Below, one piece after another: positions 5,823-63,624 of a stretch of DNA of 64,000 nt. Position numbers and translations under genes: made by a program. The notes beneath the pieces were generated by a model, which saw nothing but the letters and a program-made list of their open reading frames with translations, had not been told where the DNA came from and searched no databases. The stretch is from Burkholderiales bacterium (GTDB lineage: Bacteria; Pseudomonadota; Gammaproteobacteria; Burkholderiales; SG8-39), in the NCBI GenBank assembly GCA_050246035.1, contig JBFWWT010000003.1, positions 34,684 through 98,683 of the forward strand. The letters are read 5' to 3'. Position 1 is the first letter of the stretch; the number at the start of each line of letters is the position of its first letter.

Positions 5823-5838
5823 GGGCGGCCACTCTACC

Positions 5839-6636
5839 TCATTCGCCCTTCCAGGCGGGCTTGCGCTTGTCGAGAAAGGCCTGCATCCCCTCGCGAAAGT
5901 CCTTGCTCATGTAGCACATCAGGATCAGGTCGTCGCCCGCGCCGGGCGCGATCGACGGCCGCAGGCGAAGCAGCGCCTCCTTGGTCGCCTGTAGCGTGAG
6001 CGGCGCGTGGCTTGCGACCAGCCGGGTCACCTCCTGCGCGCGCGACAGCACCTGGGCGTCCTCGACCACCTCGGTCACCAGCCCGATGGCGAGCGCCTCC
6101 TCGGCCTCGACCAGGCGCGCGCGGAAGATCATGTCCTTGACGCGCGCCGGCCCGATGAGGGCCGCGAGGCGCGCGTAGTTGCCGCTCGAGAGGCAGTTGC
6201 CCAGGGTGCGCGCGACCGGGAAGCCCATCTTTAGCGTGCCCGAGGCGATCCGGAGGTCGCAGCAGACGGCGATCCCCGCCCCGCCGCCGGTGCACGCGCC
6301 GCGGATCGCGGCGACGGTCGGCACCCGGCAGCGCTCGAGTGCCCCCAGCACCCGGTCGATGCGGGACTCGTAGTCCAGCGCGTCCTGCGGCTTGTCGAAG
6401 GCCTTGAACTGCGAGATGTCGGTGCCGGCGGCGAACGCCTTTTCGCCCGCCCCGGTGAGAAGCAAGGCCTTGATCGAGCGGTCCTTGTCCGCGGCCTGGC
6501 AGATCTCGGCCAGCCGGTCGTACATGGCGAAGGTGAGCGCGTTGCGGGCCTGCGGCCGGTTGAAGGTGACGGTTCCGATGCCGTCGCGCACCTCGTACAG
6601 CAGGTCCTGCCCCGCGTCTGTTGCGGCCATGGTCAC
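5839..6636 (-). CDS. enoyl-CoA hydratase/isomerase (crotonase) family protein
   Basis: VTFNRPQARNAL, LTGAGEKAFAAGTDI and GACTGGGAGIAVCCDLRIA are a typical crotonase fold signature. Confidence 0.9.
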   Translation of the reverse strand: MTMAATDAGQDLLYEVRDGIGTVTFNRPQARNALTFAMYDRLAEICQAADKDRSIKALLLTGAGEKAFAAGTDISQFKAFDKPQDALDYESRIDRVLGALERCRVPTVAAIRGACTGGGAGIAVCCDLRIASGTLKMGFPVARTLGNCLSSGNYARLAALIGPARVKDMIFRARLVEAEEALAIGLVTEVVEDAQVLSRAQEVTRLVASHAPLTLQATKEALLRLRPSIAPGAGDDLILMCYMSKDFREGMQAFLDKRKPAWKGE

Positions 6637-21431: not shown

Positions 21432-21483
21432 GCGCGCACTATAAACCCCTTCCCGGTCGCTTAGAATCGCGGGTCCCGTCCCG

Positions 21484-27017
<5,534 letters not shown>

Positions 27018-27021
<4 letters not shown>

Positions 27022-38840: not shown

Positions 38841-39235
38841 TAATTAAGCTTGCGCTGCACGCGCTGGTCGAACTTGGCGACGTTGACCACGACGCGCTCG
38901 TGGGTGCCGTCGCCGATGAGCTCCTTTTCGTCGCGCGCTTCGACGCGGAAGCGGACGATGCGGCCCTCAATCCCAGTCACTTCCACCCGCGCGGTGACGC
39001 GCATGCCGACCGGCGTCGCGGCGATGTGCCGCACGTTGAGTAGCGTTCCCAGGCTCTGATGCCCGGGCGGCAAGAGGCGCTCCACCGCCTCGAGCGCCGC
39101 GGCCTCGATGAGGTTGATCATCACGGGGGTGGCGAGCACGCGCACGCGGCCGCTGCCCACGCGCGGGGCGGTGTGCTCGTCGCCCACCACGAGCTCGGCC
39201 GTGCCTGAAAGTCCCGGACGCAGTGCGTTCTCCAT
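38840..39235 (-). CDS. hotdog-fold thioesterase family protein
   Basis: 131-aa protein with ..VLATPVMINLIEAAALEAV..GTLLNVRHIAATPVGMRV... Only the C-terminal part of track ORF 38840..40933 is used. Confidence 0.7.
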   Translation of the reverse strand: MENALRPGLSGTAELVVGDEHTAPRVGSGRVRVLATPVMINLIEAAALEAVERLLPPGHQSLGTLLNVRHIAATPVGMRVTARVEVTGIEGRIVRFRVEARDEKELIGDGTHERVVVNVAKFDQRVQRKLN

Positions 39236-39253
39236 TTCTCCTATCATAGCCTC

Positions 39254-40507
39254 GTGACGGTGCGCGTCGTGATCGTGGGCTGCGGCTTCGGCGGCCTGTT
39301 CGCCGCCCGGGCGCTGAAGAGGGCGCCGGTGGAGATCACCGTCATCGACCGCACGAACCACCACCTCTTCCAGCCGCTCCTCTACCAGGTGGCCACCGCG
39401 GGACTCGCGGCGCCCGCGATCGCGGAGCCCATCCGGCGCGCGCTCGCGAAGCAGAAGAACGTCACCGTGCTCTACGGCGAAGTCCAACGCGTGGACGTGC
39501 CGGCGCGCCAAGTGATCCTCGAGAACGGCGACGCCATACCCTACGACCGCCTGATCCTCGCCACGGGCGCGACCGACAGCTACTTCGGGCACGACGAATG
39601 GCGCGCGCACGCGCCGGGCCTGAAGACGCTCGAGGACGCGTTCGCGATCCGCGAGCGCGTCCTGCTCGCCTTCGAGCGCGCCGAGCGCGAGCCCGATCCC
39701 GCCATGCGCGCCGCCTGGCTCACCTTCGTGGTGATCGGCGCGGGCGCGACCGGCGTGGAGATGGCGGGCACGCTCGCCGAGATCGCCCGCCACACCCTGA
39801 AAGGCGAGTTCCGCCGCTTCGACCCGCGCAACGCGCGCGTGGTGCTGGTGGAGGGCATGGACCGCGTGCTGCCGCCCTACCCGCCCGACCTGTCGGAGAG
39901 AGCGCGCCTGCAGCTCGAGCGGCTCGGCGTCACGGTTTGGCTCGGGCGGCGCGTCACCGGCATCGATGCGCATGGCGTGCAGCTCGGCGGCGACCGGCTC
40001 GAGGCGCGCACCGTCGTCTGGTGCGCGGGCGTCGCCGCGAGCCCGCTCGGCGCCACCCTCGGCGTGCCGCTCGAGCGCGGCGGGCGCGTGATCGTCGAGC
40101 CGGACCTTTCGGTGCCGGGCCATGCGGAGATCCAGGTCGTGGGCGACCTCGCGCACATCCCCGGGCACCGCCCGCCGGTGCCGGGCGTCGCGCCCGCGGC
40201 GAAGCAGATGGGCCGGCACGCCGCGAGGAACCTCAGGGCCTCGCTCGCCGGCGCGCCCACGAGGCCGTTCCGCTACCGCGACTACGGGCAACTGGCCACC
40301 ATCGGGCGCAGCAAGGCGGTGGCAATGTTCGGGCGCGTGCACGTCTGGGGCTGGCTCGCCTGGATCGCCTGGCTCACCGCGCACATCTACTTCCTGATCG
40401 GCTTTCGCAACCGCCTCGTCGTGCTGATCGACTGGGCGTGGGCCTACTGGACCTTCGAGCGCTCGGCGCGCATCGTCACCGGGGCGGCGAAGCGGCCGGA
40501 GGACTAG
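39254..40507 (+). CDS. ndh: type II NADH dehydrogenase (NDH-2)
   Basis: RVVIVGCGFGGLFAA, HLFQPLLYQVATAGL and VVIGAGATGVEMAG. GTG start. Confidence 0.9.
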   Translation: MTVRVVIVGCGFGGLFAARALKRAPVEITVIDRTNHHLFQPLLYQVATAGLAAPAIAEPIRRALAKQKNVTVLYGEVQRVDVPARQVILENGDAIPYDRLILATGATDSYFGHDEWRAHAPGLKTLEDAFAIRERVLLAFERAEREPDPAMRAAWLTFVVIGAGATGVEMAGTLAEIARHTLKGEFRRFDPRNARVVLVEGMDRVLPPYPPDLSERARLQLERLGVTVWLGRRVTGIDAHGVQLGGDRLEARTVVWCAGVAASPLGATLGVPLERGGRVIVEPDLSVPGHAEIQVVGDLAHIPGHRPPVPGVAPAAKQMGRHAARNLRASLAGAPTRPFRYRDYGQLATIGRSKAVAMFGRVHVWGWLAWIAWLTAHIYFLIGFRNRLVVLIDWAWAYWTFERSARIVTGAAKRPED

Positions 40508-51649: not shown

Positions 51650-51738
51650 GCCTCAAGTCTAGCGGCTGGCCGCGGCCTAGACACCTCGCGGGGCCCCTTG
51701 CTAGACTGGACGCGCACATAAATCGGAGGAGACCCACC

Positions 51739-52920
51739 GTGCGCACCCCCATCCGCATGCTGGCGGCCGCGGCCGCCGCCGCGTCGCTCGCGTTCGCGCC
51801 GCTCGCGTCCGCGCAGCAGAAGATCAAGATCGGCTTCATCACCACGCTCACCGGCCCTGCCGGCATCATCGGCAAGCACATGAAGGACTCGGTCGAGCTC
51901 GCCATGGACCACCTGGGCGGCAAGATGGGCGGCGTGCCCGTCGAGGTGATCTTCGGCGACGACCAGTTCAAGCCCGACATCGGCGTGCAGGTCGCCGAGG
52001 AGATGCTGAAGAAGCACCAGGTCGACATCGTCTCCGGCATCATCTGGTCGCACGTGATGATGGCCGTCGTGCCGGTGGTCACCGGGGCCGGCAAGGTGAT
52101 GGTCGGCACCAACGCCGGCGCGAGCCCGCTCGCCGGCAAGGCCTGCCACCCGCAGTACTTCTCCACCTCCTGGAACAACGACCAGACGCCCGAGGCGATG
52201 GGCAAGTTCATGCAGGAGCAGGGCATCAACGACGTCTACGTGCTCGCGCCCAATTACCAGGCCGGCAAGGACATGGTCGCGGGCTTCAAGCGCTACTACA
52301 AGGGCCGCATCGTCGAGGAGATCTTCACCAAGCCGGGCCAGCAGGACTATCAGGCCGAGATCACGCAGCTGCGCGCCAAGAACCCCAAGGCCGCGTTCGT
52401 GTTCTATCCGGGCGGCATGGGCGTGCAGTTCGTGCGCCAGTACTTCCAGGCCGGCCTGCGCGACCGCATCCCGCTCTACTCCGTGTTCACGGTGGACGAG
52501 ACGACGCTCCCGGCGCTCAAGGAGTCGGCGATCGGCCAGTGGGAGACCAAGTTCTGGAACCCCGACCTCGACGTGCCGGCGAGCAAGCGCTACGTCGCCG
52601 ACTTCCGCAAGAAGTTCGGCTACACGCCCTCGTTCTACGGCGCGCAGAGCTACGACGGGATCATGCTGATCGACTCCGCGGTGCGCGCCAACAAGGGCAG
52701 CCTGGCCGACACCAAGGCGGTGGTCGCCGCCATGCGCAAGGCGGACTACGACTCGATTCGCGGCAAGTTCCAGTGGAACGTCAACCAGCACCCGATCCAG
52801 GACTTCTACCTCATCCAGACGGTGAAAGGCGGGCCGGACGGCGTGACCACCGAGATCAAGCGCAAGGTGTTCGACGATCACAAGGACTCGTACTACCAGG
52901 ACTGCAAGATGCCCTGGTGA
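51739..52920 (+). CDS. branched-chain amino acid-type ABC transporter substrate-binding protein (LivK/LivJ family)
   Basis: GTG start, SD GGAGGAG, signal peptide, then KIKIGFITTLTGPAGIIG. Confidence 0.85.
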   Translation: MRTPIRMLAAAAAAASLAFAPLASAQQKIKIGFITTLTGPAGIIGKHMKDSVELAMDHLGGKMGGVPVEVIFGDDQFKPDIGVQVAEEMLKKHQVDIVSGIIWSHVMMAVVPVVTGAGKVMVGTNAGASPLAGKACHPQYFSTSWNNDQTPEAMGKFMQEQGINDVYVLAPNYQAGKDMVAGFKRYYKGRIVEEIFTKPGQQDYQAEITQLRAKNPKAAFVFYPGGMGVQFVRQYFQAGLRDRIPLYSVFTVDETTLPALKESAIGQWETKFWNPDLDVPASKRYVADFRKKFGYTPSFYGAQSYDGIMLIDSAVRANKGSLADTKAVVAAMRKADYDSIRGKFQWNVNQHPIQDFYLIQTVKGGPDGVTTEIKRKVFDDHKDSYYQDCKMPW

Positions 52921-52943
52921 GCGCCGCCGCCCGACGCTAGCCG

Positions 52944-52977
52944 AGGGGCGCGGCCGACTGCCGCGCCCCTCTTTTTT
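52944..52977 (+). terminator. intra-operon terminator/attenuator hairpin after the SBP gene
   Basis: AGGGGCGCGG-N7-CCGCGCCCCT followed by CTTTTTT. It directly abuts the GTG start of the first permease gene. Confidence 0.55.
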
Positions 52978-53901
52978 GTGACCGCGATCCTCGTCTTCGA
53001 GCAGGCGCTGAACGGACTGCAGTTCGGCGTGATGCTCTTCCTGATGGCCGCCGGGCTGACGCTCGTGTTCGGCATCATGAACCTGGTGAACCTGGCGCAC
53101 GGCTCGCTCTACATGGTGGGCGCCTATCTCACGGTGGCGGCCGTGCAGTGGACCGGTTCCTATCCGCTCGGCGTGCTGCTCGGCCTCCTCGGCACGCTGG
53201 TGGTCGGCATGCTCGTCGAGGTGATCGCGCTGCGCACGCTCTACGAGCGCGACCACCTCGACCAGGTGCTCGCCACCTTCGGGCTGATCCTGTTCTTCAA
53301 CGAGCTGATCGCCATCCTGTGGGGCCGCGCGGCGCTGTACACCAGCCTGCCGCAGTACCTGCAGGGATTCGTCGAGATCATCCCGGGCTCCATCTACCCC
53401 GTGTACCGCGCGCTGGTCATTGTCGTCGGCCTCGCGGTGGCCGCGATCCTCTGGTACGTGGTCACGAAGACGCGTCTCGGCATGCTGGTGCGGGCGGGCG
53501 CCTCCAACCGCACCATGGTGGCGGCCCTCGGCGTCAACATCCGCCTGCTCTACACGCTGGTCTTCGGCTTCGGCGCGGCGCTCGCCGGGCTCGCCGGCCT
53601 GATGGCGGGTCCGATTTACGCGGTGCAGCCCGGCATGGGCGAGCTGATCCTCATCCAGGTGTTCGTGGTGATCGTCATCGGCGGCATCGGCTCGATCCGC
53701 GGCGCCTTCGTCGGCGCCCTCATCGTCGGCATGGTGGACACCATGGGGCGCGCGTTCCTGAAGCCGCTGCTCGGCCACTTCATCTCGCCGCCTGCGGCCG
53801 AGGCCGCGGGCCCCGCGCTCGCCTCGATGCTCATCTACCTCCTCATGGCCGTGGTGCTCGCCGTGCGCCCCGAGGGCCTCTTCCCGGCGCGCGGGCACTG
53901 A
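52978..53901 (+). CDS. livH: branched-chain amino acid ABC transporter permease (LivH family)
   Basis: NGLQFGVMLFLMAAGLTLVFGIMNLVNLAHG and 8 TM helices. Confidence 0.85.
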   Translation: MTAILVFEQALNGLQFGVMLFLMAAGLTLVFGIMNLVNLAHGSLYMVGAYLTVAAVQWTGSYPLGVLLGLLGTLVVGMLVEVIALRTLYERDHLDQVLATFGLILFFNELIAILWGRAALYTSLPQYLQGFVEIIPGSIYPVYRALVIVVGLAVAAILWYVVTKTRLGMLVRAGASNRTMVAALGVNIRLLYTLVFGFGAALAGLAGLMAGPIYAVQPGMGELILIQVFVVIVIGGIGSIRGAFVGALIVGMVDTMGRAFLKPLLGHFISPPAAEAAGPALASMLIYLLMAVVLAVRPEGLFPARGH

Positions 53902-53902
53902 C

Positions 53903-54841
53903 ATGCGCGCGCGCACGCTCATCCTCGGACTCTGCGTGCTGCTGCTCGCGGCCGTGCCGCCGCTCGCGGCGCTCGCCGGGCAGCCCTACTACGTCGAGCT
54001 CCTGCGCCGCGTGATGATCTTCGCCATCGCCGCGACCAGCCTCAACCTGATCCTCGGCTACGGGGGACTCGTGTCCTTCGGCCACGCGGCCTATCTCGGC
54101 GTCGGCGGCTACGCGGTCGGCATCTTCGCCTTCTACGGCGTGCACAGCGGCTGGCTGCAGTGGACGGTGGCGATCGGCGCCTCGGCGCTCGTCGCGCTCG
54201 CCATCGGCGCCATCTCGGTGCGCACGCGCGGCATCTACTTCATCATGATCACGCTCGCCTTCACGCAGATGCTCTACTACCTCGGCATCTCGGTGGAGGA
54301 GTACGGCGGGGACGACGGCCTGCGCCTCAAGGTGAAGAGCCAGTTCTGGGGCCTCGTGGACCTGAACGACCCCGTGGCCTTCTACTACGTCGTGCTCGCG
54401 CTGCTGCTCGCGGTGATCTACCTCGTGCACCGGCTGGTCAACTCGCGCTTCGGCCTGGTGCTGCGCGCGGCCAAGTCGAACGAGGCGCGCACGCGCGCCA
54501 TCGGCTTCTCGCCCTACCCGTACCAGCTCGCGGCGTTCGTCATCGCCGGCGCGATCTGCGGGCTGGCGGGCGCGCTGCTCGCCAACCAGACCGCTTACAT
54601 CGCCCCGGCCTTCATGGACTGGACGCGCTCGGGCGAGATCATGTTCATGGTGATCCTCGGCGGCATGGGCACGACGCCCGGCCCCGCGCTCGGCGCCTTC
54701 GCCCTGCTCATCGTCGAGGACCTGCTCGCGGGCTGGACCGAGCACTGGCAGGTGTTCCTCGGGCCGCTGCTCGTGCTCTCGGTGCTCTTCTTCAAGCGCG
54801 GGCTCGCGGGACTGCTGCCGGGAGGCCGCAAGGATGGCTGA
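53903..54841 (+). CDS. livM: branched-chain amino acid ABC transporter permease (LivM family)
   Basis: SLNLILGYGGLVSFGHAAYLGVGGY. Confidence 0.85.
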   Translation: MRARTLILGLCVLLLAAVPPLAALAGQPYYVELLRRVMIFAIAATSLNLILGYGGLVSFGHAAYLGVGGYAVGIFAFYGVHSGWLQWTVAIGASALVALAIGAISVRTRGIYFIMITLAFTQMLYYLGISVEEYGGDDGLRLKVKSQFWGLVDLNDPVAFYYVVLALLLAVIYLVHRLVNSRFGLVLRAAKSNEARTRAIGFSPYPYQLAAFVIAGAICGLAGALLANQTAYIAPAFMDWTRSGEIMFMVILGGMGTTPGPALGAFALLIVEDLLAGWTEHWQVFLGPLLVLSVLFFKRGLAGLLPGGRKDG

Positions 54842-55583
54842 GGCGATCCTCGCCGTGCAGGGCCTGCGCAAGGCCTTCGGCGCGCTCGCCGCCACCGACG
54901 GCGTGAGCCTCGAGGTGCGCGAGGGGGAAACCCACGCCATCATCGGGCCGAACGGCGCGGGCAAGACCACGCTCATCGGCCAGCTCGCGGGCAACCTGCG
55001 CCCCGACGCCGGCAGCATCCGCTTCGCCGGCGAGGACGTGACGCGCCTCGGCGCGCCGCAGCGCGCGAAGCGGGGCTTCGCGCGCTCCTTCCAGATCACG
55101 AGCATCTATCGCGACTTCACGGCCCTGGACAACGTGGCGCTCGCGGTGCAGGCGCATGCCGGGCACAGCTTCCGCTTCTGGCGCCCCGCGCGCGAAGAGC
55201 GCGCGCTGCGCGAGCCGGCGCGGCGCGTGCTGGAGGAAGTGGGCCTGGGCGCGCGCGCCGACGTGCTGGCGGCGAACCTCTCGCACGGCGAGCAGCGGCA
55301 GCTCGAGGTGGCGATGGCGCTCGCCACGCGCCCGCGCCTGCTGCTCCTCGACGAGCCGGTCGCGGGCATGGGTCTGGAGGAGTCCCAGCGCATGGTGCAG
55401 TTCCTCGCCGGCCTCAAGGGCCGGCAAACCATGATCCTCGTCGAGCACGACATGGACGCCGTCTTCACGCTCGCCGACCGCATCTCGGTGCTGGTCTACG
55501 GCCGCATCATCGCGAGCGGCGCCCCCGACGAGGTGCGCGGCAACCCCGAAGTGCGCCGCGCCTATCTCGGGGAGGAGTCGTGA
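54834..55583 (+). CDS. livG: branched-chain amino acid ABC transporter ATP-binding protein (LivG family)
   Basis: GPNGAGKTT, LSHGEQRQLEVAMAL and LLLLDEP. Confidence 0.9.
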   Translation: MAEAILAVQGLRKAFGALAATDGVSLEVREGETHAIIGPNGAGKTTLIGQLAGNLRPDAGSIRFAGEDVTRLGAPQRAKRGFARSFQITSIYRDFTALDNVALAVQAHAGHSFRFWRPAREERALREPARRVLEEVGLGARADVLAANLSHGEQRQLEVAMALATRPRLLLLDEPVAGMGLEESQRMVQFLAGLKGRQTMILVEHDMDAVFTLADRISVLVYGRIIASGAPDEVRGNPEVRRAYLGEES

Positions 55584-56284
55584 TGCTGAAGGTCGAAGGC
55601 CTCGAGACCGCCTACGGCCTGTCGCAGGTGCTCTTCGGCGTGTCGCTCGAGATCGCCGAGGGCGAGGTGGTGACGCTGCTCGGCCGCAACGGCATGGGCA
55701 AGACCACCACGGTGCTCTCCATCATGGGCGTCGTGCGCCCGCGGGGCGGCCGCGTCGAGATGGGCGGCGCGCCGATCGCGGGACTGCCTTCGTTCCGCGT
55801 GGCGAAGGCGGGACTCGGTCTGGTGCCCGAGGGCCGCCAGATTTTCCCCAATCTCACGGTGCGCGAGAACCTCGTCGCCACCGCCGCCAACCGCCGCGGC
55901 GCGGCCGCGCCCTGGACGCTGGAGCGGGTGTTCCGGCTTTTCCCGAGCCTGGAAGAGCGCCAGCGCCACTTCGGCAACCAGCTCTCGGGCGGCGAGCAGC
56001 AGATGCTCGCCATCGGCCGGGCGCTGATGACCAACCCGCGCCTGCTCATCCTCGACGAGGCGACCGAGGGCCTCGCGCCGCTCGTGCGCGGCGACATCTA
56101 CCGCTCGATCGAGCAGCTGAAGGGCGAAGGGCTCTCGATCCTCGTCATCGACAAGGACGTGCGCGCGCTCACGCGCATCGCCGACCGGCACTACGTGCTG
56201 GAGAAGGGCCGCGTGGTGTGGAGCGGCGGCTCGGGCGAGCTCGCCGCCGCCGCGGACGTGCAGCACCGCCATCTCGGAGTATAG
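55580..56284 (+). CDS. livF: branched-chain amino acid ABC transporter ATP-binding protein (LivF family)
   Basis: GRNGMGKTT, LSGGEQQMLAIGRAL and LLILDEAT. Confidence 0.9.
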   Translation: MMLKVEGLETAYGLSQVLFGVSLEIAEGEVVTLLGRNGMGKTTTVLSIMGVVRPRGGRVEMGGAPIAGLPSFRVAKAGLGLVPEGRQIFPNLTVRENLVATAANRRGAAAPWTLERVFRLFPSLEERQRHFGNQLSGGEQQMLAIGRALMTNPRLLILDEATEGLAPLVRGDIYRSIEQLKGEGLSILVIDKDVRALTRIADRHYVLEKGRVVWSGGSGELAAAADVQHRHLGV

Positions 56285-56291
56285 GAAGCGC

Positions 56292-57608
56292 ATGATCAGC
56301 ACCGAGCAGAACGAACGCATGACGCGCGTCGGCCCCGGCACGCCCGCCGGGACGCTGCTGCGCAACTACTGGCAGCCGGTCGCGCTCGCCGACGAGTTCG
56401 ACGGCAAGCGCGACGTGAAGCCAGTGACGCTGCTCGGCGAGCATTTCGTCCTCTTTCGCGACGAGCGCGGCCGCTACGGGCTGCTCGGCCGGCACTGCCC
56501 GCACCGGCAAGCCGACCTCGCCTACGGTCGCCTGGAGGACGGGGGCCTGCGCTGCGCGTTCCACGGCTGGCTGTTCGACGTCGAGGGCAGGTGCCTGGAG
56601 ACGCCGGCCGAGCCCGCCGGCAGCCGCCTGTGCGAGCACATCCGGCAGCGCTCCCACCCCGTCGTCGAGAAGAGCGGGATCCTCTTCGCCTGGCTCGGGG
56701 CGGGCGCGCCCTCGGCCTTTCCGCATTTCGACTGCTTCACGGCGCCCGACTCGCACACCTTCGCCTTCAAGGGCTACTGGGACTGCAACTGGCTGCAGGC
56801 GCTCGAAGTGGGCATCGACCCGGCGCACGCCTCGTTCCTGCACCGCTACTTCGAGGACGAGGATCCCGCGGCGAGCTACGGCAAGCAGTTCCGCGGCCGG
56901 CCCTCGGACTCCGACCTGCCGATCACCAAGGTGCTGCGCGAGTACGACCGTCCCGAGATCACGGTCGCGCGCACCGACTACGGCATCCGCCTCGTCACCT
57001 TGCGGAAGATCGACGAGCAGAAGACGCACGGGCGCGCGACGCACATCCTCTTCCCGCAAGCCTTCGTCATCCCGATGAACGCCGAGATGACGATCACGCA
57101 GTGGCACGTGCCGACCGACGACCGGGGCTGCTACTGGTACTCGATCTTCACCAGCTTCACCGCGCCGGTGGACAAGAAGACCATGCGCGAGCAGCGCCTG
57201 AAGACCTACCCCGCCCCCGAGTACCGCCCGATCCACGGCCGCCACGACGGCTGGGGCTTCGACGCCGACGAGCAGCGCACGAAGACCTACACGGGCATGG
57301 GCTTCGACATCAACATCCACGACCAGTGGGCCTGTGAGTCGCCGGGGCCGATCGCCGACCGCACGAAGGAAAGTCTCGGCACGACCGACAAGGGCATCGT
57401 GCTCTACCGGCGGCTCCTCGTGGACGCGATCCAGAAGGCGGCGAAAGGCGAGCGCACGCTCATGATGCTCGATGCCACGCAAGCCGCGGCGCTCACGGGG
57501 CCGCCCGCCGTGGACGGCATCGGCCCGACCGGGCGCTGGGACGAGTACTACCGCGAGGCCGACTCGGCGCGCCGCGACCACGCCCCCTGGGCGGCGAAGG
57601 CGGCATGA
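56292..57608 (+). CDS. Rieske [2Fe-2S] non-haem-iron oxygenase alpha subunit (alpha-only, phthalate-family-like)
   Basis: CPHRQADL..CAFHGWLF Rieske motif and a C-terminal catalytic domain with DPAHASFLH. Confidence 0.85.
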   Translation: MISTEQNERMTRVGPGTPAGTLLRNYWQPVALADEFDGKRDVKPVTLLGEHFVLFRDERGRYGLLGRHCPHRQADLAYGRLEDGGLRCAFHGWLFDVEGRCLETPAEPAGSRLCEHIRQRSHPVVEKSGILFAWLGAGAPSAFPHFDCFTAPDSHTFAFKGYWDCNWLQALEVGIDPAHASFLHRYFEDEDPAASYGKQFRGRPSDSDLPITKVLREYDRPEITVARTDYGIRLVTLRKIDEQKTHGRATHILFPQAFVIPMNAEMTITQWHVPTDDRGCYWYSIFTSFTAPVDKKTMREQRLKTYPAPEYRPIHGRHDGWGFDADEQRTKTYTGMGFDINIHDQWACESPGPIADRTKESLGTTDKGIVLYRRLLVDAIQKAAKGERTLMMLDATQAAALTGPPAVDGIGPTGRWDEYYREADSARRDHAPWAAKAA

Positions 57609-58981
57609 CGGACCTGGTGAAGGAAGTCGCCGCCTGCGGCGTCGAGGCGGTGCGCTTCGCGTTCGCCGACCAGCACGGGCTGCTGCGCGCCAAGACCATC
57701 GCGGTCCCCGAGCTCCCGGGGGCACTGGCGAACGGCCTCGGCTTCCCGAGCTCGCTGCTCGCCAAGGACACCTCCAACAAGACCGTCTTCCCGGTGTTCA
57801 CGGCGGGCGCGGGCTTCGGCATGCCCGAGCTCGAGGGCGCTGCGGACGCCGTCATGGTGCCCGACCCGACCACGTTCCGCGTGCTTCCCTGGGTGCCGAG
57901 GACCGGCTGGGTGCTGTGCGACCTGAAGTTCGCAAACGGCAAGCCCGTGCCCTTCGACACGCGCGCGCTGCTGAAGAAGGCGCTCGCCGATCTCGCCGCC
58001 GCGGGCTACGGCTACCGCGCGGGCCTGGAGATCGAGTTCCACGTGTTCCGCCTGCTGGATGCGAAGCTGCGCCCGGAGGACGCGGGCCAGCCGGGCTCTC
58101 CGCCCGAGGTCGGGTTGCTCACCTCGGGCTACCAGCTCCTGTCGGAGACGCGCCACGACCAGCTCGAGCCCGCGCTCGACGCGCTGCGCCGCGGGCTGGA
58201 AGGATTGCGGCTGCCGCTGCGCAGCTTCGAGTGCGAGTTCGGGCCGAGCCAGGCCGAGGTGACCCTCGGCGTGCAGGACGGGCTCGAGGCGGCGGACGCC
58301 ATGGTGCTGTTCAGGAGCGCGGCGAAGCAGATCCTGCGCCGCCACGGCTACCACGCCACGTTCATGTGCCGGCCGAAGCTGCCCAACGTCATGTCCTCCG
58401 GCTGGCACCTGCACCAGTCGCTCGTCGACCGGCGCGGGGCGAACGCCTTCGTGTCGGAGAAGGCTTTCCTCTCCGATCTCGGCAAGCACTTCCTTGCCGG
58501 CCTGCTGGCGCACGCGAGCGCGTCCGCCGCCTTTGCGACGCCGACCCTGAACGGCTACAAGCGCTACCGGCCCTACTCTCTCGCCCCCGAGCGGGCGATC
58601 TGGGGCCGCGACAACCGCGGGGCCATGCTGCGCGTGCTGGGCGGCCCCGGCGACCCCGCCACGCGCATCGAGAACCGCATCGGCGAGCCGGCGGCCAACC
58701 CCTACCTCTATTTCGCTTCGCAGATCCATTGCGGCCTGGACGGCGTGCGGCGCAAGCTCGATCCGGGCGAGCCCGAGCAGCGGCCCTACGAGTCGAAGGC
58801 GCCCGCGCTGCCCCGCTCGCTGGAGGAGGCGATCGCGGCCCTCAGAGCGAACGAGACCCTGAAGTCCGGCCTCGGCCCGGCGTTCGTGGACTACTATTGC
58901 AGGATCAAGGAGGCCGAGATCGCGCGCTTCAACCTCGAGGTCACCGACTGGGAGCACCGCGAGTACTTCGATCTTTATTAG
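57605..58981 (+). CDS. glutamine synthetase family protein (gamma-glutamyl-amine ligase-like)
   Basis: ATGA overlap with the Rieske gene. GLEIEFHVF, ECEFGPSQAEV, SSGWHLHQSL, NGYKRY and RIENRIGEPAANPYL. Confidence 0.85.
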   Translation: MTDLVKEVAACGVEAVRFAFADQHGLLRAKTIAVPELPGALANGLGFPSSLLAKDTSNKTVFPVFTAGAGFGMPELEGAADAVMVPDPTTFRVLPWVPRTGWVLCDLKFANGKPVPFDTRALLKKALADLAAAGYGYRAGLEIEFHVFRLLDAKLRPEDAGQPGSPPEVGLLTSGYQLLSETRHDQLEPALDALRRGLEGLRLPLRSFECEFGPSQAEVTLGVQDGLEAADAMVLFRSAAKQILRRHGYHATFMCRPKLPNVMSSGWHLHQSLVDRRGANAFVSEKAFLSDLGKHFLAGLLAHASASAAFATPTLNGYKRYRPYSLAPERAIWGRDNRGAMLRVLGGPGDPATRIENRIGEPAANPYLYFASQIHCGLDGVRRKLDPGEPEQRPYESKAPALPRSLEEAIAALRANETLKSGLGPAFVDYYCRIKEAEIARFNLEVTDWEHREYFDLY

Positions 58982-58997
58982 GGACTGTCCCCAATAA
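58975..58997. repeat. minimal 'ends-only' copy of the repeat family
   Basis: TTATTAGGGACTGTCCCCAATAA consists of the two outer repeat termini joined back to back. The GS-like TAG stop (58979-81) lies inside it. Confidence 0.5.
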
Positions 58998-59000
58998 GCC

Positions 59001-59708
59001 ATGCAAGACCTCACCCCCACCGGCAAGCTGCGCGTCGGCGTCAACTGCAGCAATTTCCTCCTCGTGCAGCGCAATCCGGACGGCACGGCGCGCGGCATCG
59101 TCCCCGACCTCGCCCACGAGATCGGCCAGCGCATCGCCGCGCCAGTCGAGCTCGTGCTCTACGAGAAGGTCGGCGACGTCGCCGACGGCGGCAAGGCGGG
59201 CGCCTGGGACGTCGCCTTCATCGGCGCCGAGCCTCAGCGCGCGCAGGACATCGACTTCACCGAGCCCTACGTGGAGATCGAGGCCACCTACCTCGTGCCG
59301 CCGGGCTCCGCCATCCGCACGATCGACGAAGTCGACCGAAAGGGCGTGCGCATCGCGGTGGCGGACCGCAGCGCCTACGACCTCTGGCTCACGCGCAACA
59401 TCAAGCACGCCGAGCTGCGGCGCGTGGAGGGCCTGAACGCCTCGTTCGAGCTCTTCGTGCGCGAGAAGCTCGAGGTCCTCGCCGGCCTCAAGCCCAAGCT
59501 CCTCGAGGACGCGGCGAAACTCCCCGGCGCGCGCATCCTGGAGGGCCGCTTCACCGCCGTGCAGCAGGCGATCGGCACGCCCAAGGGCCGGCCCGAGGGC
59601 TACGCCTTCCTGCGCGGCTTCGCCGCCGACATCAAGGCGAGCGGGCTGGTGGCGCGGCTGATCGAGCGCCACGGCATCAAGGGCCTTTCGGTGGCAGGGC
59701 CCGCCTAG
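59001..59708 (+). CDS. type-3 periplasmic-binding-protein-fold protein lacking a signal peptide
   Basis: KLRVGVN.., ARGIVPDLAHEIG, IDFTEPY and AVQQAIGTPKG. The N-terminus MQDLTPTG has no hydrophobic leader. Confidence 0.7.
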   Translation: MQDLTPTGKLRVGVNCSNFLLVQRNPDGTARGIVPDLAHEIGQRIAAPVELVLYEKVGDVADGGKAGAWDVAFIGAEPQRAQDIDFTEPYVEIEATYLVPPGSAIRTIDEVDRKGVRIAVADRSAYDLWLTRNIKHAELRRVEGLNASFELFVREKLEVLAGLKPKLLEDAAKLPGARILEGRFTAVQQAIGTPKGRPEGYAFLRGFAADIKASGLVARLIERHGIKGLSVAGPA

Positions 59709-59721
59709 GCTGCACGGCGCC

Positions 59722-60411
59722 ATGGGCCGGCTCGTCTATCGGTTCGAGTTTCCCGACGGACGCACGGAGTCGCTCGACGCCGCGGCCCCGCCGCCGCAGC
59801 AATCGCTACCCGAATGGACGGCGCTGGGCTTCCACCAGTGCGCCAACTGCCCGCTCACCCCCGCGCGGGCCGAGCGCTGTCCGATGGCGGTGCGGCTCGT
59901 GCCCCTGGTCACGCTGTTCGAGAAGGTGCGCTCCTACGACGACGTCACCGCGCAGGTGGAGTCCGAGGAGCGCACGGTCACCAAGCGCACCAGCGTGCAG
60001 AAAGTGCTGCGCTCGCTCATGGGGCTGCTCTCGGCGAGCAGCGACTGCCCGCGCATCGAGTTTCTCAAGCCCATGGCGCACTACCACCTGCCCTTCTCGA
60101 GCAGCGAGGAGACCATCTATCGCGTCGTCTCGACCTACCTCCTCGCGCAGCACTTCCTGCGCCAGCAGGGCAAGGCGGCCGATGCGGGCCTGGATGGGCT
60201 GAAGGCCTATTACCACGAGCTGCAGCAGGTGAACCAGGGGATGGCCGCGCGCCTGGGCGCCATCCGCGACACGCAGGGCGACAGCAGCGTGAACGCGCTC
60301 GTGCTGCTCGATCTTTTCGCGCAGTCGCTGCCGGACTCGATCGACGCGCAGCTGGAGGAGCTCAGGCCCGCTTTCCAGGAATTCCTGGCCAAGCACTACG
60401 GCGACACCTAG
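59722..60411 (+). CDS. hypothetical Cys-containing protein
   Basis: 229 aa with HQCANCPLTPARAERCP and SSDCP. No family recognised. GC3 is coding-like. Confidence 0.6.
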   Translation: MGRLVYRFEFPDGRTESLDAAAPPPQQSLPEWTALGFHQCANCPLTPARAERCPMAVRLVPLVTLFEKVRSYDDVTAQVESEERTVTKRTSVQKVLRSLMGLLSASSDCPRIEFLKPMAHYHLPFSSSEETIYRVVSTYLLAQHFLRQQGKAADAGLDGLKAYYHELQQVNQGMAARLGAIRDTQGDSSVNALVLLDLFAQSLPDSIDAQLEELRPAFQEFLAKHYGDT

Positions 60412-61019
60412 CCCTCGACGGGCAGCACCTCGATCGCGTATTCGTGGCGCAGCTTGCGCCCGAGCACCGGGTCCTCGAGCTCCATGGCGAACCGCTTCGC
60501 CGGGCGGATGCCGCCCTTGGCCGCGAGCGTGCCGCAGAACATCGCCATGCCGGGCCTGAGGCTTCCATACCGGTGCATCAGGTCCTCGGGCGAGCGCATC
60601 GCCGTGACCGGCCCTTCCTGGTAGAGCGCGCCGTCGGCCCAGGCGCGCAGCACCAGGCGCTCCCAGTGCGGCTTCACCTCGTCGTGGCGCCAGGATTCCG
60701 CCGACACGGGCTTCGCGCACAGCTGCTTGGAGAGGCTCACGCCGATCGTCTCGGCCTTGCGGTCGGTATGGTCCGAGCCCACCGCGACGCGCAGGCCGTC
60801 GGGCGCGGCGATGAGCACGAACTCCACCTCCCCGCTCGTGTCGGGCCCGGACACCTGGATGGCGTCGGCGTGCGTGAACAGGCTCGCCGCGACGCGGTAG
60901 AAGATCGGCGTCGTCTTCGGCGGCTTGACCCCGATGTCCTCCAGTTCCCGGATGTGGCGGCGCAGCGCCACCTCGTCGCGCCCGGTCCAGCCCGCGATCA
61001 CCAGCTCGCGCACCGCCAT
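60408..61019 (-). CDS. DUF2848-like protein
   Basis: MAVRELVIAGWTGRDEVALRRHIRELEDIGVKPP and GSDHTDRK. TGATG coupling to the upstream HpaB-family gene. Confidence 0.65.
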   Translation of the reverse strand: MAVRELVIAGWTGRDEVALRRHIRELEDIGVKPPKTTPIFYRVAASLFTHADAIQVSGPDTSGEVEFVLIAAPDGLRVAVGSDHTDRKAETIGVSLSKQLCAKPVSAESWRHDEVKPHWERLVLRAWADGALYQEGPVTAMRSPEDLMHRYGSLRPGMAMFCGTLAAKGGIRPAKRFAMELEDPVLGRKLRHEYAIEVLPVEG

Positions 61020-62476
61020 CAGGCGACCTTGCGCGCGCCAGAGGCCTCGGGCACGCCGTAGCCGGCCATCAGGTCGTCCACGACCTTGTGATAGCCCTCC
61101 CAGGGCGCCTCGCGGAAATTGTGGTTGCGCACGATGAACGAAGCCCCCGCGTAGAACTTCTCGTACTGCAGGTGCCGCCCCGCGAACTCCGAGCCGATGA
61201 GGTCCCAGGCGAGCTTGTAGAGCTTCATGCGCTCGAGCGCGGGCATCTGCGGCGTCTGCCAGTAGGTCTCGAACTGGGCCTTGAGCTTCTCGTCGTGCAT
61301 CACGGTGACGTCGGCGGGCATCTGGAAGATGCCGCCGCCGCAGAGCTCCCGCAGCGTCTCGATGATCGCCGAGTGGTTCTCGGTGCACCAGTTGAGCGCC
61401 GCGTACATGTAGCGCCGGTTGAAGGTTCTGAAGCCGGCCGGCCAGTCCTCGGCGTCCTGGATCTGCCCGGCGATCATGCCGCCGAGCGTCGCCTCGAGCG
61501 CGCACAGGCGCCCGAGCACCTCGCGCACCGCCGGAATCTCGTTCGCGCCCGAGGCCTGCGCGATGCGGCTCGCGAGGCCGACGATGAGCTGCATCTTCGA
61601 GTGGAAGCGCACGTTCGACTGGTGGTTGCCGTAGCAGTGCGCGGGCGTCTTGATGTAGATGTCGCGCGCCAGCACCGCGTCCATGTGCACGAACACCCGC
61701 TCCCAGGGCACCTTGACGTTCTCGCACATCACCATCGAGTCCGACTCGTCGAAGCGCCAGGCGAGCGGGTTGTCGAACTCGTTCGGCGCGTGCAGCTCGA
61801 AGGGCTTGCGCGACCACAGCGTCAGTCCCGGCGCGTTCACCGGCACGGCGCAGGTGATCGACTCGGGCAGCTGGTTGGGCGCGAGCGGGATCAGGTTGCC
61901 GATCCAGATCTCGTTGGCGAAGACGGCCCCGGTGGCGAGCATCTTCATGCCCGAGATCACCACGCCGTCGTCGTCCTCGCGCACCACGCGCAGCGTCGGG
62001 ATCGGCAGGTTCTGCTTCACGTAGAACTCGGGATTGCGCGCGGCCTGCGGCGGGATCACCGCGTACACGCCGTAGACGTCCTCCTTCCTCATGTGCTCGT
62101 AGTAGCGCACGAGGTTGTCGGCGAACTTGCCGAACACGCCCGGATTGGTCGCCATGCCGGTGACGAAGCTCGAGACGTGGTCGGGCGAGCGGCCGAGCAG
62201 GCCGTGGCTCAGGTCGGCGATCGCGCGGTGCAGGCGGGTGCGCTGCTCGAGGTCCGCCTTCGTCTTCGCGCGCAGGAAGTACGCGCTGTAGCGCTCGCCG
62301 CCCTCTTCGAAGCTGAAGTCCGGATCTGCCGCCTTGAGATCGTAGATCGCCGCCATCGAGCGCGCACCGTTGCGAAACGCCGGGTGCGTGGTGACGTCGT
62401 CCACCCGCTCGCCGCCGACGTACACGACGCGCCCGTCGCGCAGGGACTTCAGGTGCTCGGCTCCCGTCTTCAGCAT
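61019..62476 (-). CDS. 4-hydroxyphenylacetate 3-hydroxylase (HpaB) family flavin-dependent oxygenase component
   Basis: MLKTGAEHLKSLRDGRVVYVGGERVDDVTTHPAF and 485 aa. The track ORF start was trimmed to ATG 62476. Confidence 0.85.
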   Translation of the reverse strand: MLKTGAEHLKSLRDGRVVYVGGERVDDVTTHPAFRNGARSMAAIYDLKAADPDFSFEEGGERYSAYFLRAKTKADLEQRTRLHRAIADLSHGLLGRSPDHVSSFVTGMATNPGVFGKFADNLVRYYEHMRKEDVYGVYAVIPPQAARNPEFYVKQNLPIPTLRVVREDDDGVVISGMKMLATGAVFANEIWIGNLIPLAPNQLPESITCAVPVNAPGLTLWSRKPFELHAPNEFDNPLAWRFDESDSMVMCENVKVPWERVFVHMDAVLARDIYIKTPAHCYGNHQSNVRFHSKMQLIVGLASRIAQASGANEIPAVREVLGRLCALEATLGGMIAGQIQDAEDWPAGFRTFNRRYMYAALNWCTENHSAIIETLRELCGGGIFQMPADVTVMHDEKLKAQFETYWQTPQMPALERMKLYKLAWDLIGSEFAGRHLQYEKFYAGASFIVRNHNFREAPWEGYHKVVDDLMAGYGVPEASGARKVA

Positions 62477-62486
62477 GACGCCCTCC

Positions 62487-62879
62487 TCACCTCGGCCTGC
62501 CGCTGGTTTCGTAGTAGTGGATCTCGTACAGCAGGCAGCCGTCCTTGCTCGAGAAGGGCCCGTGGTGCACGCCGGGCGGGCGGCAGGCATAGGTGAAGGC
62601 CTGCGAGGACTGCCCCCCGCGACCCTGCGCGTCGTTGCCGACGACCAGGTCGCCCTGCACGAGGAACACCTCCTCCCAGTGGTCGTGCACGAACGGCGCC
62701 GTGGAGTAAGCCCCGGGCGCGATCTTCAGCAGGCGCGTGCGGCTGCCGCGCTTGGCGCTCTCGTCGATGTCGGAGGCGAGGATCTTCTGCGTGAAGCCCG
62801 GAGGATAGCCGGGCGGAGTTTCCCAGCCCTTCTCCAGGTCTACGCCGACGAACTCCAGGTGGGGCTTCGGGCTGCTCAT
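62487..62879 (-). CDS. cupin domain-containing protein
   Basis: 130 aa with FVHDHWEEVFLVQGDLV and PPGVHHGPF. SD GAGGAAAG. Confidence 0.75.
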   Translation of the reverse strand: MSSPKPHLEFVGVDLEKGWETPPGYPPGFTQKILASDIDESAKRGSRTRLLKIAPGAYSTAPFVHDHWEEVFLVQGDLVVGNDAQGRGGQSSQAFTYACRPPGVHHGPFSSKDGCLLYEIHYYETSGRPR

Positions 62880-62950
62880 GCACTTTCCTCGAACGCGCGT
62901 TGACTCGGGGGAGTCTCCCTTCGCAAAATGCCTTTGTCAATCAATCCGCC

Positions 62951-63379
62951 ATGACGCCCATCCGGCTCCGCGGCATCGACCACCTCGTCCTGCGCGTGCG
63001 CGACATCGAGGCGATGCGCCGCTTCTACTGCGACGTGCTCGGCGCCGAGCATGTCGCCTGGCGGCCCGAGTACGGCATGTCGCACCTGAGGGCCGGGCGC
63101 TCGATGATCGATCTCATCACGGTGGACGGAAAGCTCGGGCAGGCTGGCGGCGCAGCGCCCGGCAAGGAAGGCCGCAACCTGGATCACCTGTGCCTGCGCG
63201 TGGAGCCGTTCGATCAGGAGGCGATCATCGCGCACCTGAAGGCGCACGGCGTCGCGGTCGGCGAGATCCGCACGCGTTACGGCGCGGAAGGCAACGGCGT
63301 CTCCATCTACCTCGCGGACCCGGAAGGCAACACCGTGGAGCTCAAGGGCCCCTCGGACGGGAAGGCGCCGCCGGCATGA
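62951..63379 (+). CDS. VOC (glyoxalase/bleomycin resistance/dioxygenase) family protein
   Basis: IDHLVLRVRDIEAMRRFY, LDHLCLRV and IYLADPEGNTVEL. Confidence 0.8.
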   Translation: MTPIRLRGIDHLVLRVRDIEAMRRFYCDVLGAEHVAWRPEYGMSHLRAGRSMIDLITVDGKLGQAGGAAPGKEGRNLDHLCLRVEPFDQEAIIAHLKAHGVAVGEIRTRYGAEGNGVSIYLADPEGNTVELKGPSDGKAPPA

Positions 63380-63624
63380 GCCAGGAGGAGCTGCAGAAGG
63401 CCCTGGCGCTCCTGCGCGCGGGCGACTGGCAGACGGCGCACGCCATGGTGCAGAAGGACGAGGACTCGCCCCTCGCCTGCTGGGCGCACGGCATCGTGCA
63501 TCTGATGGAAGGCGATACTTCGAACGCGCGCTATTGGTACCGGGAGGCGAAGCGCGAATTTCCGCGGGCGCCCTCGATCGCGCAGGAGCTCGACGCCCTC
63601 CAGGCCGCGCTGCGGATGACTTGA
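63376..63624 (+). CDS. hypothetical small helical protein
   Basis: ATGA overlap with the VOC gene. 82 aa with no motif recognised. Confidence 0.5.
   Translation: MSQEELQKALALLRAGDWQTAHAMVQKDEDSPLACWAHGIVHLMEGDTSNARYWYREAKREFPRAPSIAQELDALQAALRMT

Follow-up and report, generated by a model that had tools for sequence, protein, structure and literature searches.

Organization of the locus

The stretch of DNA considered here (64,000 nucleotides from the metagenome-assembled genome, or MAG, of an uncultured member of the Burkholderiales; hereafter, the window) contains between positions 51739 and 63624 a set of genes centered on a pair encoding a Rieske oxygenase and a ligase that resembles glutamine synthetase (hereafter GS-like). 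Nine co-directional genes lie on the plus strand (51739-60411), followed by three on the minus strand (60408-62879) and then two more on the plus strand (62951-63624). Open reading frames (ORFs) were assigned to domains through Pfam and through the cut-offs of NCBIfam equivalogs. The oxygenase (56292-57608, plus strand) has Rieske and LigXa_C domains and is classed as an alpha-only non-heme-iron enzyme of the phthalate family. Its gene overlaps by ATGA that of the ligase (57605-58981, plus strand), a Gln-synt_C protein proposed here to be a gamma-glutamyl-arylamide synthetase.

Upstream of the pair and on the same strand are the genes of a leucine/isoleucine/valine (LIV)-type ATP-binding cassette (ABC) importer: a periplasmic binding protein with a signal peptide (51739-52920; Peripla_BP_6, Pfam E 4e-78), two BPD_transp_2 permeases, one LivH-like (52978-53901) and one LivM-like (53903-54841), and two ATPases assigned by their domains as LivG-like (54834-55583) and LivF-like (55580-56284). 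A sigma-70-like promoter match (51678-51707, plus strand; a match to the consensus only) precedes the binding-protein gene, one of 2 such sites in 13 kb where 0.4 were expected. After the binding-protein gene, and before the first permease gene, is a GC-rich, attenuator-like hairpin (52943-52971, plus strand), with a 12-bp stem containing 11 G-C pairs followed by TTTTTT, an arrangement that fits the binding protein being expressed more highly than the membrane components.

The plus-strand series ends, after the pair, with genes encoding a signal-less protein of the SBP_bac_3 fold (59001-59708; Pfam E 1e-12; hereafter, the SBP-fold protein) and a DUF6901 protein with four invariant Cys (59722-60411; Pfam E 2e-63). 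The minus-strand operon begins with a small cupin of 130 amino acids (62487-62879; Cupin_7, E 2e-6), continues with an HpaB-family flavin-dependent aromatic hydroxylase, represented by its oxygenase component only (61019-62476; HpaB_N and HpaB domains), and ends with a DUF2848 protein (60408-61019; Pfam E 4.5e-73) that resembles the FAH superfamily, with a weak match to FAA_hydrolase. Divergent from the cupin gene is one encoding a VOC/glyoxalase-fold protein (62951-63379, plus strand; Glyoxalase, E 1.6e-14), overlapped by 4 nt by the gene of an 82-amino-acid mini-protein with two repeats like those of tetratricopeptide repeat (TPR) proteins (63376-63624, plus strand).

The junctions along the nine plus-strand genes, as read from the sequence, are in order 57, 1, -8, -4, 7, -4 (the ATGA), 19, and 13 nt, in agreement with a preliminary description of this DNA, according to which all overlaps or spacers past the first gene are of 19 nt or less. 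The coordinates, strands, and domains of that description also stand, but its VOC gene at 62951-63624 is in fact the VOC gene plus the overlapping gene for the TPR-like protein. Its term "island" we do not retain. GC content is flat across the window, a search for an island signature gave no tRNA or Rfam matches, and the left flank (pdxH, APH, and an enolase-like gene) is syntenic in relatives. The flat GC content and the syntenic flank indicate a chromosomal cluster rather than a compositional island.

Conservation of the Rieske/ligase pair

Neighborhoods were counted, in aligned coordinates, in 80 metagenome loci centered on homologues of the Rieske protein, with a sub-clade defined by a Rieske score above 715 bits (n=55). 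Individual loci are designated by L numbers. In 49 of the 50 informative loci of the sub-clade and in 21 of 23 in the outgroup, the Rieske gene is followed directly by that of the ligase, hence in 70 of the 73 informative metagenome loci. The order Rieske-then-ligase also holds in all eight of the MAG loci (8/8). Amongst plasmid records, 17 have a Rieske protein at least 47% identical to that of the window, and each of these has a ligase homologue no more than 7 kb away (directly adjacent in 14); no record listed below 37% Rieske identity is also among the ligase matches listed.

In one relative, L013 (MAG contig JAQBXT010000001.1, 8364-8603), a clean deletion of 2.48 kb, equivalent to window positions 56522-59000, has taken residues 78 to the end of the Rieske protein and the entire ligase gene. 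The importer, the SBP-fold gene, and the DUF6901 gene are retained. Gene neighborhoods, then, uphold one part of what had been proposed, the co-conservation of the Rieske and ligase genes, but not the other, the nine plus-strand genes as a co-conserved unit: the DUF6901 gene was found in 0 of the 80 Rieske-centered loci and a homologue of the SBP-fold gene in 1 of 80 (a borderline case), and L013 lost only the pair.

The oxygenase and the ligase

Amongst solved structures, the best relatives of the Rieske protein resemble phthalate dioxygenase (7fjl and 7fhr, E about 1e-58), and it is 62-68% identical to ligase-linked oxygenases of cultured bacteria. With the large subunit of the alpha/beta aniline-type enzyme of Delftia, it shares only 26% identity over 129 amino acids. 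No ORF for a beta (small) oxygenase subunit was found in the window; the Rieske gene is flanked by those of LivF and the ligase.

The closest solved relative of the GS-like protein is NpaA1 (8wwu; 454 bits, E 8e-135), a ligase that gamma-glutamylates 1-naphthylamine and anilines (PMC11335346). Structures of true glutamine synthetases score at most 186 bits and that of GmaS 162 bits. The protein is about 48-50% identical to NpaA1 and to a TdnQ-type protein of Delftia, and its Glu209 and Glu211 align with E232 and E234 of the amine pocket of NpaA1. To the question, raised in the preliminary description, of whether the ligase groups with GlnA or PuuA, the answer is no: its NCBIfam scores of 235-239 bits fall well below cut-offs of 429-650 (PuuA, 238.9 against 650; GlnA, 235.3 against 429; type III glutamine synthetase, 237.2 against 469.6). 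The comparisons support placing the GS-like protein within the branch of arylamine (organic-amine) gamma-glutamyl ligases rather than with the ammonia-assimilating glutamine synthetases. The resemblance to NpaA1 and the tight co-conservation of the two genes also accord with the logic of gamma-glutamylation originally suggested for the pair.

The ligase also offers a clue to its substrate. In all GS-like proteins whose genes are linked to that of an alpha-only Rieske oxygenase, the loop matching V68'-M81' of NpaA1 reads xxLLAKDTS(H/N)(K/R)TVFP, and an invariant Lys within it occupies the position of NpaA1 Phe75', which contacts and stacks on the ring of the substrate (PMC11335346). Aniline and naphthylamine ligases have PFFFD at the equivalent position. 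The replacement of a ring-contacting Phe by an invariant Lys suggests recognition of an anionic substituent, which would fit the phthalate family of the oxygenase and also the PcaK-like transporters encoded near certain relatives, described next.

Cultured relatives and the question of redox partners

Related pairs are found in cultured bacteria, accompanied by genes that the window lacks. In Polaromonas sp. JS666, a GntR gene is followed by genes for the Rieske protein, the ligase, a 2Fe-2S ferredoxin, an FAD reductase, a LIV importer, and a class I amidotransferase. In Burkholderia sp. YI23, GntR is followed by the Rieske protein, ligase, ferredoxin, reductase, and a peptidase like gamma-glutamyl hydrolase, with a transporter of the PcaK-like, 4-hydroxybenzoate type nearby. 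The cluster of C. pinatubonensis HN-2 has also a nitroreductase, a transporter of the same type, and a gamma-glutamyl hydrolase. These three clusters share 58-66% identity with the pair of the window. N. resinovorum SA1, which degrades sulfanilate, has on pSA3 a pair (Rieske 62% and ligase 59% identical to the window proteins) together with ferredoxin, reductase, and glutaminase A, and in Palleronia sp., pcaB and pcaD adjoin the ligase gene. When the Polaromonas ligase served as query in a protein search, the matches were all from other Comamonadaceae. With the PcaK-like transporters of two clusters, the pcaB and pcaD genes of Palleronia, and the glutaminase A of the N. resinovorum cluster as hints, the substrate would most likely be an acid of the aminobenzoate type.

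The alpha-only arrangement has a published counterpart. As summarized in two papers citing Gan et al. 2012 (PMC5632844, PMC3704786), Hydrogenophaga sp. PBC has in its sad operon the genes of SadA, an alpha-only Group I oxygenase, and of an adjacent and required GS-like protein, SadB, which with a ferredoxin and a reductase constitute 4-aminobenzenesulfonate 3,4-dioxygenase. One of the two states that Group I oxygenases linked to GS-like proteins form a monophyletic clade with SadA (PMC3704786). The SadAB authors, as represented there, suspected that the natural substrate was an analogue of 4-aminobenzenesulfonate.

The window was searched for partners over its whole 64 kb, by phmmer with the partner proteins of a complete relative, by a scan for the Fer2 motif, and by Pfam scans of the other ORFs. 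None of these found a ferredoxin, reductase, amidotransferase, beta subunit, or HpaC, in keeping with the early observation that the usual partners are missing. Two class-I amidotransferase-like gamma-glutamylanilide hydrolases used as queries likewise had no match in the window. The naphthylamine system can do without its amidotransferase-like component (PMC11335346). The only flavoprotein candidate for a reductase in the window, with a Pyr_redox_2 domain (39209-40504), was rejected, matching the Polaromonas reductase with 18 bits. Elsewhere in the sub-clade, a ferredoxin or reductase gene accompanies the pair in 0 of 22 loci, while in the outgroup a ferredoxin gene does so in 8 of 16.

Genes associated with the pair in the sub-clade

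The window falls in an uncultured Burkholderiales sub-clade that is distinct from the cultured type. A window-type LIV importer, with a LivF homologue on the same strand, lies upstream of the Rieske gene in 15 of the 22 sub-clade loci with enough upstream sequence to be informative. Of 37 informative sub-clade loci, 24 have a gene resembling gentisate 1,2-dioxygenase (GDO-like) upstream of that of the Rieske protein; it is absent from the window and the other 13. The GDO-like bicupin is encoded directly upstream, for example, in L099 (8942-9931), L089 (9027-10004), L100 (9011-9994), and L101 (8997-10004), and is sometimes accompanied by a PaaA/PaaC-like diiron protein. Its best match in PDB is gentisate 1,2-dioxygenase (3bu7, E 4.5e-117), which implies a substrate for ring cleavage of the salicylate or gentisate type, and the product in the sub-clade of the window may differ from protocatechuate. 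Outgroup loci have none of the importer, GDO-like, or HpaB features; a GntR gene is present in 11 of 22.

The binding protein of the importer belongs to the Peripla_BP_6 fold family but does not reach the NCBIfam cut-off for LivJ/LivK (56 bits against 477) and is also far under that for UrtA. Its closest solved relatives are 4evq, 4ey3, 4zpj, 4evs, and 4f06, of which we take 4evq, 4ey3, 4evs, and 4f06 to be binders of benzoate derivatives. Binding proteins encoded at the equivalent position in relatives are 72-77% identical to that of the window. The window protein is 25-28% identical both to binding proteins linked to Rieske genes and to those linked to HpaB genes, so similarity assigns the importer to neither module.

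The HpaB-family protein scores 284.6 bits against the HpaB equivalog TIGR02309, short of the cut-off of 480, and about 209 bits against its solved relatives. Its gene and those flanking it resemble an uncharacterized module of Thioclava sp. (L096, 5454-9993) and Caballeronia sp. NK8 (L097, 5439-11224), in which genes for flavin reductase, HpaB, cupin, amidase, and DUF2848 are found with those for MarR and a LIV-type transporter. The flavin reductase present in both is absent from the window. The preliminary description had treated cupin-HpaB-DUF2848 as a flanking operon. It is indeed a separately conserved module, yet within the sub-clade it is recurrently linked to the pair: HpaB or DUF2848 is encoded in 7 of the 14 sub-clade loci with at least 6 kb of downstream sequence but in 0 of 13 outgroup loci. 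In L151 (8018-13445), the genes for GntR, Rieske protein, ligase, cupin, and HpaB run in one direction with gaps of 20-81 nt, and a window-type LIV transporter lies convergently downstream. L151 is an independent rearrangement that holds the same gene set together.

The gene of the TPR mini-protein, which is unannotated, moves about within this set. Homologues follow the ligase gene directly in L099 (12677-12919), L101 (12731-12982), L109 (2712-2930), L111 (3938-4156), and L114 (7594-7806). In L107 (6385-6612) the gene directly precedes the Rieske gene, in L150 (15242-15478) it follows the DUF2848 gene, in L154 (8558-8791) it follows the GDO-like gene, and in L124 and L131 it is beside the cupin gene. 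The proteins share 30 invariant columns, including GDW, CWAHGIVH, and NARYWY. The AlphaFold2 model of the window protein (pLDDT 81) has a TPR fold, and a search with it gave only generic TPR matches. The string of genes in L151 and this mobile neighbor suggest that the link of cupin-HpaB-DUF2848 to the pair is more than synteny, and we propose, with modest confidence, that the cupin-HpaB-DUF2848, GDO-like, and TPR genes probably act on the same class of compounds as the pair. The wider family of the mini-protein has 955 representatives at 50% clustering, and its more distant members occur in other contexts, for example after a thiamine-pyrophosphate enzyme in Roseomonas.

Passenger genes and other features of the window

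Three genes of the locus are lineage-specific passengers. The VOC gene is present only in the closest relatives, L001 and L007; relatives carry a glutathione S-transferase (GST) gene at that position. The SBP-fold protein, which has a weak match to cyclohexadienyl dehydratase (5jos, E 1e-10), belongs to an orphan family outside the conserved system. Its homologues (42-48% identity) are found in unrelated contexts in 221 records of plasmids or chromids, of which 118 are from Ralstonia. They do not adjoin ABC permeases, and in Variovorax the gene follows those for a membrane dipeptidase and an alpha/beta hydrolase.

The DUF6901 protein, previously called a Cys-rich unknown, has only four Cys, but all (C40, C43, C53, and C109) are invariant in the family, as are His120 and His122. 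The family has 337 genomic matches in more than 300 genomes of many phyla (among its hosts Burkholderiales, Gallionellaceae, Desulfobacterales, Bacteroidota, Acidobacteria, and Elusimicrobia), with tandem duplicates in four loci of the Desulfobacterales (L057, L065, L070, and L073). More than 70 of the genomes lack the Rieske/ligase pair, and the gene has no conserved neighbor. The AlphaFold2 model is poor (pLDDT 52), and a search of the literature found nothing on DUF6901 or on DUF2848. DUF6901 was considered as the missing electron carrier and ruled out by its distribution: many genomes without the pair, no conserved neighbor, and none of the 80 loci.

Two other genes were noted elsewhere in the window. 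One (21445-27021, plus strand) encodes a double-length UvrA-like ABC ATPase of 1858 amino acids with UvrA_inter and UvrA_DNA-bind domains; a uvrA of comparable length is annotated on a plasmid of B. pyrrocinia (L104). The other (4761-5906, minus strand) encodes a diiron oxygenase of the AurF family (p-aminobenzoate N-oxygenase-like; Pfam E 1.4e-23) and adjoins genes for enoyl-CoA hydratase and a TctC/TctA transporter. Its distance from the cluster is 46 kb. As the AurF family is broad, we claim no link.

Proposed function and alternatives

The locus probably serves to take up an amino-substituted aromatic compound, in all likelihood one bearing a carboxylate, and to begin its catabolism with a first step. 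As we envision it, the binding protein and the LivHMGF-type ABC transporter would import the substrate. The GS-like ligase would then use ATP and L-glutamate to convert it to a gamma-glutamyl-arylamide, and the alpha-only Rieske protein would oxygenate the ring at the nitrogen-bearing carbon and its neighbor, the amide departing as glutamine to leave a dihydroxy-aromatic acid. Since the window has no redox partners, the electrons must in this scheme come from a ferredoxin and a reductase encoded outside it. The products of the linked genes of the sub-clade would probably hydroxylate compounds of the same class further, cleave their ring, and hydrolyze them.

Several considerations weigh against this proposal. 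Neither the 64 kb of the window nor any of the 22 informative loci of the sub-clade encodes a ferredoxin, reductase, or gamma-glutamyl hydrolase, so that activity depends on unlinked partners. The orthology of the window pair to SadA/SadB is indirect, by way of the pair of N. resinovorum SA1 and the published statement on the clade. The binding protein of the window is only 25% identical to that of the Polaromonas cluster. Finally, the hints of substrate conflict with one another: clusters of the cultured type point to 4-aminobenzoate giving protocatechuate, whereas 24 of 37 sub-clade loci have the GDO-like gene, whose product would not cleave protocatechuate, in conflict with protocatechuate as the universal product.

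Perhaps the sub-clade goes further and runs a pathway, not yet described, for some natural benzoate that is aminated or hydroxylated, built from the LIV importer, the GDO-like protein, the alpha-only Rieske protein, the GS-like ligase, and the TPR protein, with cupin-HpaB-DUF2848 nearby and with no dedicated redox partners. Nitrogen would be salvaged as glutamine, the ring would be split by a gentisate-type fission and not by way of protocatechuate, and the TPR protein would be a specific accessory of the oxygenase/ligase pair. We offer this only tentatively. It is similarly possible, but we think doubtful, that all genes from 51739 to 63624 make up one integrated and undescribed pathway for a natural aminated benzoate, which would extend rather than contradict the function proposed above: HpaB would hydroxylate, the ligase and the Rieske protein would exchange the amine for oxygen, the cupin (or the GDO-like protein of relatives) would cleave in the fashion of gentisate, and the DUF2848 protein would hydrolyze. 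The modules do lie together in the window and in L087, L089, L102, L117, L124, L127, L129, L131, L147, L150, and L156, they are joined in one co-directional string in L151, the TPR gene shifts between all of them, a GST gene stands beside the trio in L087 and L089, and the frequency and strong gentisate-dioxygenase match of the GDO-like gene speak for such a cleavage. However, about half of the sub-clade loci have no HpaB trio within 10 kb, and elsewhere the trio is independent, accompanied by a flavin reductase, an amidase, MarR, and a LIV transporter of its own. Also, vicinal dioxygenation of an aminobenzoate cannot directly yield gentisate, and the window has no GDO-like gene. A different kind of integration, in which the nine plus-strand genes are one operon and the SBP-fold and DUF6901 proteins are partners of the oxygenase (DUF6901 serving, for example, as a Cys-ligated metal or electron-transfer substitute for ferredoxin), we consider highly improbable. 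It draws on the short same-strand spacers after the ligase gene, the invariant Cys and His residues of DUF6901, and the lack of a ferredoxin in the window, but DUF6901 occurs without the pair even in anaerobic Desulfobacterales, it has no constant neighbor and is never near the Rieske gene in the metagenome loci, 79 of the 80 lack the SBP-fold gene, L013 retains both genes despite the loss of the pair, and neither has a clear ribosome-binding site.

Two further alternatives concern the pair itself. The GS-like protein might glutamylate an aliphatic amine or polyamine, in the style of PuuA, GmaS, or IpuC, with the Rieske protein acting as a monooxygenase or demethylase on the resulting gamma-glutamyl-alkylamide or on some unrelated compound. 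In its favor, the usual cargo of LIV-type importers is amino acids or small amides, the ligase has a polar rather than a hydrophobic substrate loop, and in isopropylamine catabolism a GS-like ligase is coupled to a hydroxylase. This alternative is nonetheless improbable, given the scores far under the cut-offs for PuuA and type III glutamine synthetase, the much closer match to the structure of NpaA1 than to that of GmaS, the Rieske family (the phthalate/LigXa group acting on aromatic acids), and the company kept by relatives: aromatic-acid transporters, pcaB/pcaD, nitroreductases, and the gene resembling that of gentisate dioxygenase. The other alternative, to which we attach equally little likelihood, is that the pair in the window is a functionless remnant left by the loss of dedicated redox partners. 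The lack of a linked ferredoxin or reductase anywhere in the sub-clade and the deletion of the pair in L013 are consistent with decay. But both ORFs are intact, with high third-position GC, and both have ribosome-binding sites, that of the Rieske gene, which starts 7 nt after the LivF stop, being GGAAG. Across the sub-clade, the Rieske proteins are 74-85% identical and the GS-like proteins 66-72%, and 49 of 50 loci have kept the pair. Moreover, alpha-only Rieske oxygenases commonly use unlinked reductases.

If the locus does activate and oxygenate an aminated aromatic acid, as we think probable, then it bears on the origin of the strategy. Glutamylation-dependent oxidation of arylamines is so far known mostly from plasmid-borne degraders of xenobiotics. 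The locus and its hundreds of relatives represent a chromosomal version, linked to an importer and common in uncultured Burkholderiales of soil and sediment. So widespread a version suggests that the ancestral substrate was a natural aminated aromatic acid, which speaks to the question left by the SadAB authors. The proposed route would turn aryl-nitrogen directly into glutamine. Four components stand out as targets: the importer's binding protein, the substrate loop of the ligase with its Lys, the GDO-like partner seen in relatives, and the conserved accessory protein of 82 amino acids.

Comparison with known systems

The dioxygenase systems for aniline, chloroaniline, and 1-naphthylamine (AtdA1-A5, TdnQTA1A2B, and NpaA1-A5) share with the scheme proposed here ATP-dependent gamma-glutamylation by a GS-like enzyme followed by Rieske dioxygenation, and their ligases account for the 48-50% identity noted above. 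They differ from the window in that their oxygenase is an alpha/beta enzyme of another Rieske family, with little similarity to the alpha-only protein. Their ligase loop is hydrophobic (PMC11335346), in contrast to the polar KDTS(H/N)(K/R) of the window clade. Also, they have an amidotransferase-like gamma-glutamylanilide hydrolase, and the window has none.

The modules of Thioclava and Caballeronia resemble the cupin-HpaB-DUF2848 operon in the sequences of the cupin (56-59% identity), DUF2848 (53-55%), and HpaB (37-40%) and in a comparable order of genes. The copy in the window is reduced, having neither flavin reductase nor amidase, and it is paired with the Rieske and ligase genes.

Paraburkholderia terrae KU-15 is reported to possess a 4-aminobenzoate cluster consisting of pabA (GS-like), pabB1-B3 (oxygenase, ferredoxin, and reductase), and pabC (hydrolase), and the route reportedly passes through gamma-glutamyl-4-carboxyanilide to protocatechuate. 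As a lead, the set as reported would match the clusters of YI23, HN-2, and JS666 in its genes (GntR, Rieske, ligase, ferredoxin, reductase, and gamma-glutamyl hydrolase). It would differ from the window, which has no ferredoxin, reductase, or hydrolase, and the GDO-like gene of the sub-clade speaks against protocatechuate as a universal product.

The closest parallel is with SadA/SadB. There, as in the window, the oxygenase is an alpha-only member of the phthalate family (Group I), with no beta subunit, and the GS-like gene is directly beside that of the oxygenase, the two being co-inherited in the relatives of the window. SadA/SadB carry out the deaminating dioxygenation of a para-substituted aniline bearing an anionic group, and it is through gene architecture that we liken the window to them. 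The window differs in lacking a linked ferredoxin or reductase, in the LIV-type ABC importer joined upstream, and in the association of its sub-clade with GDO-like, HpaB, cupin, DUF2848, and TPR genes. The preliminary description could not assign the combination to a described pathway, but an alpha-only Rieske protein with an adjacent GS-like protein is the architecture published for SadA/SadB, at least as these papers outline it (PMC5632844, PMC3704786). By this analogy, we regard the locus as most likely a variant of the SadAB-type activation and oxygenation of arylamines, a known strategy that calls for no new principle rather than a new kind of system.

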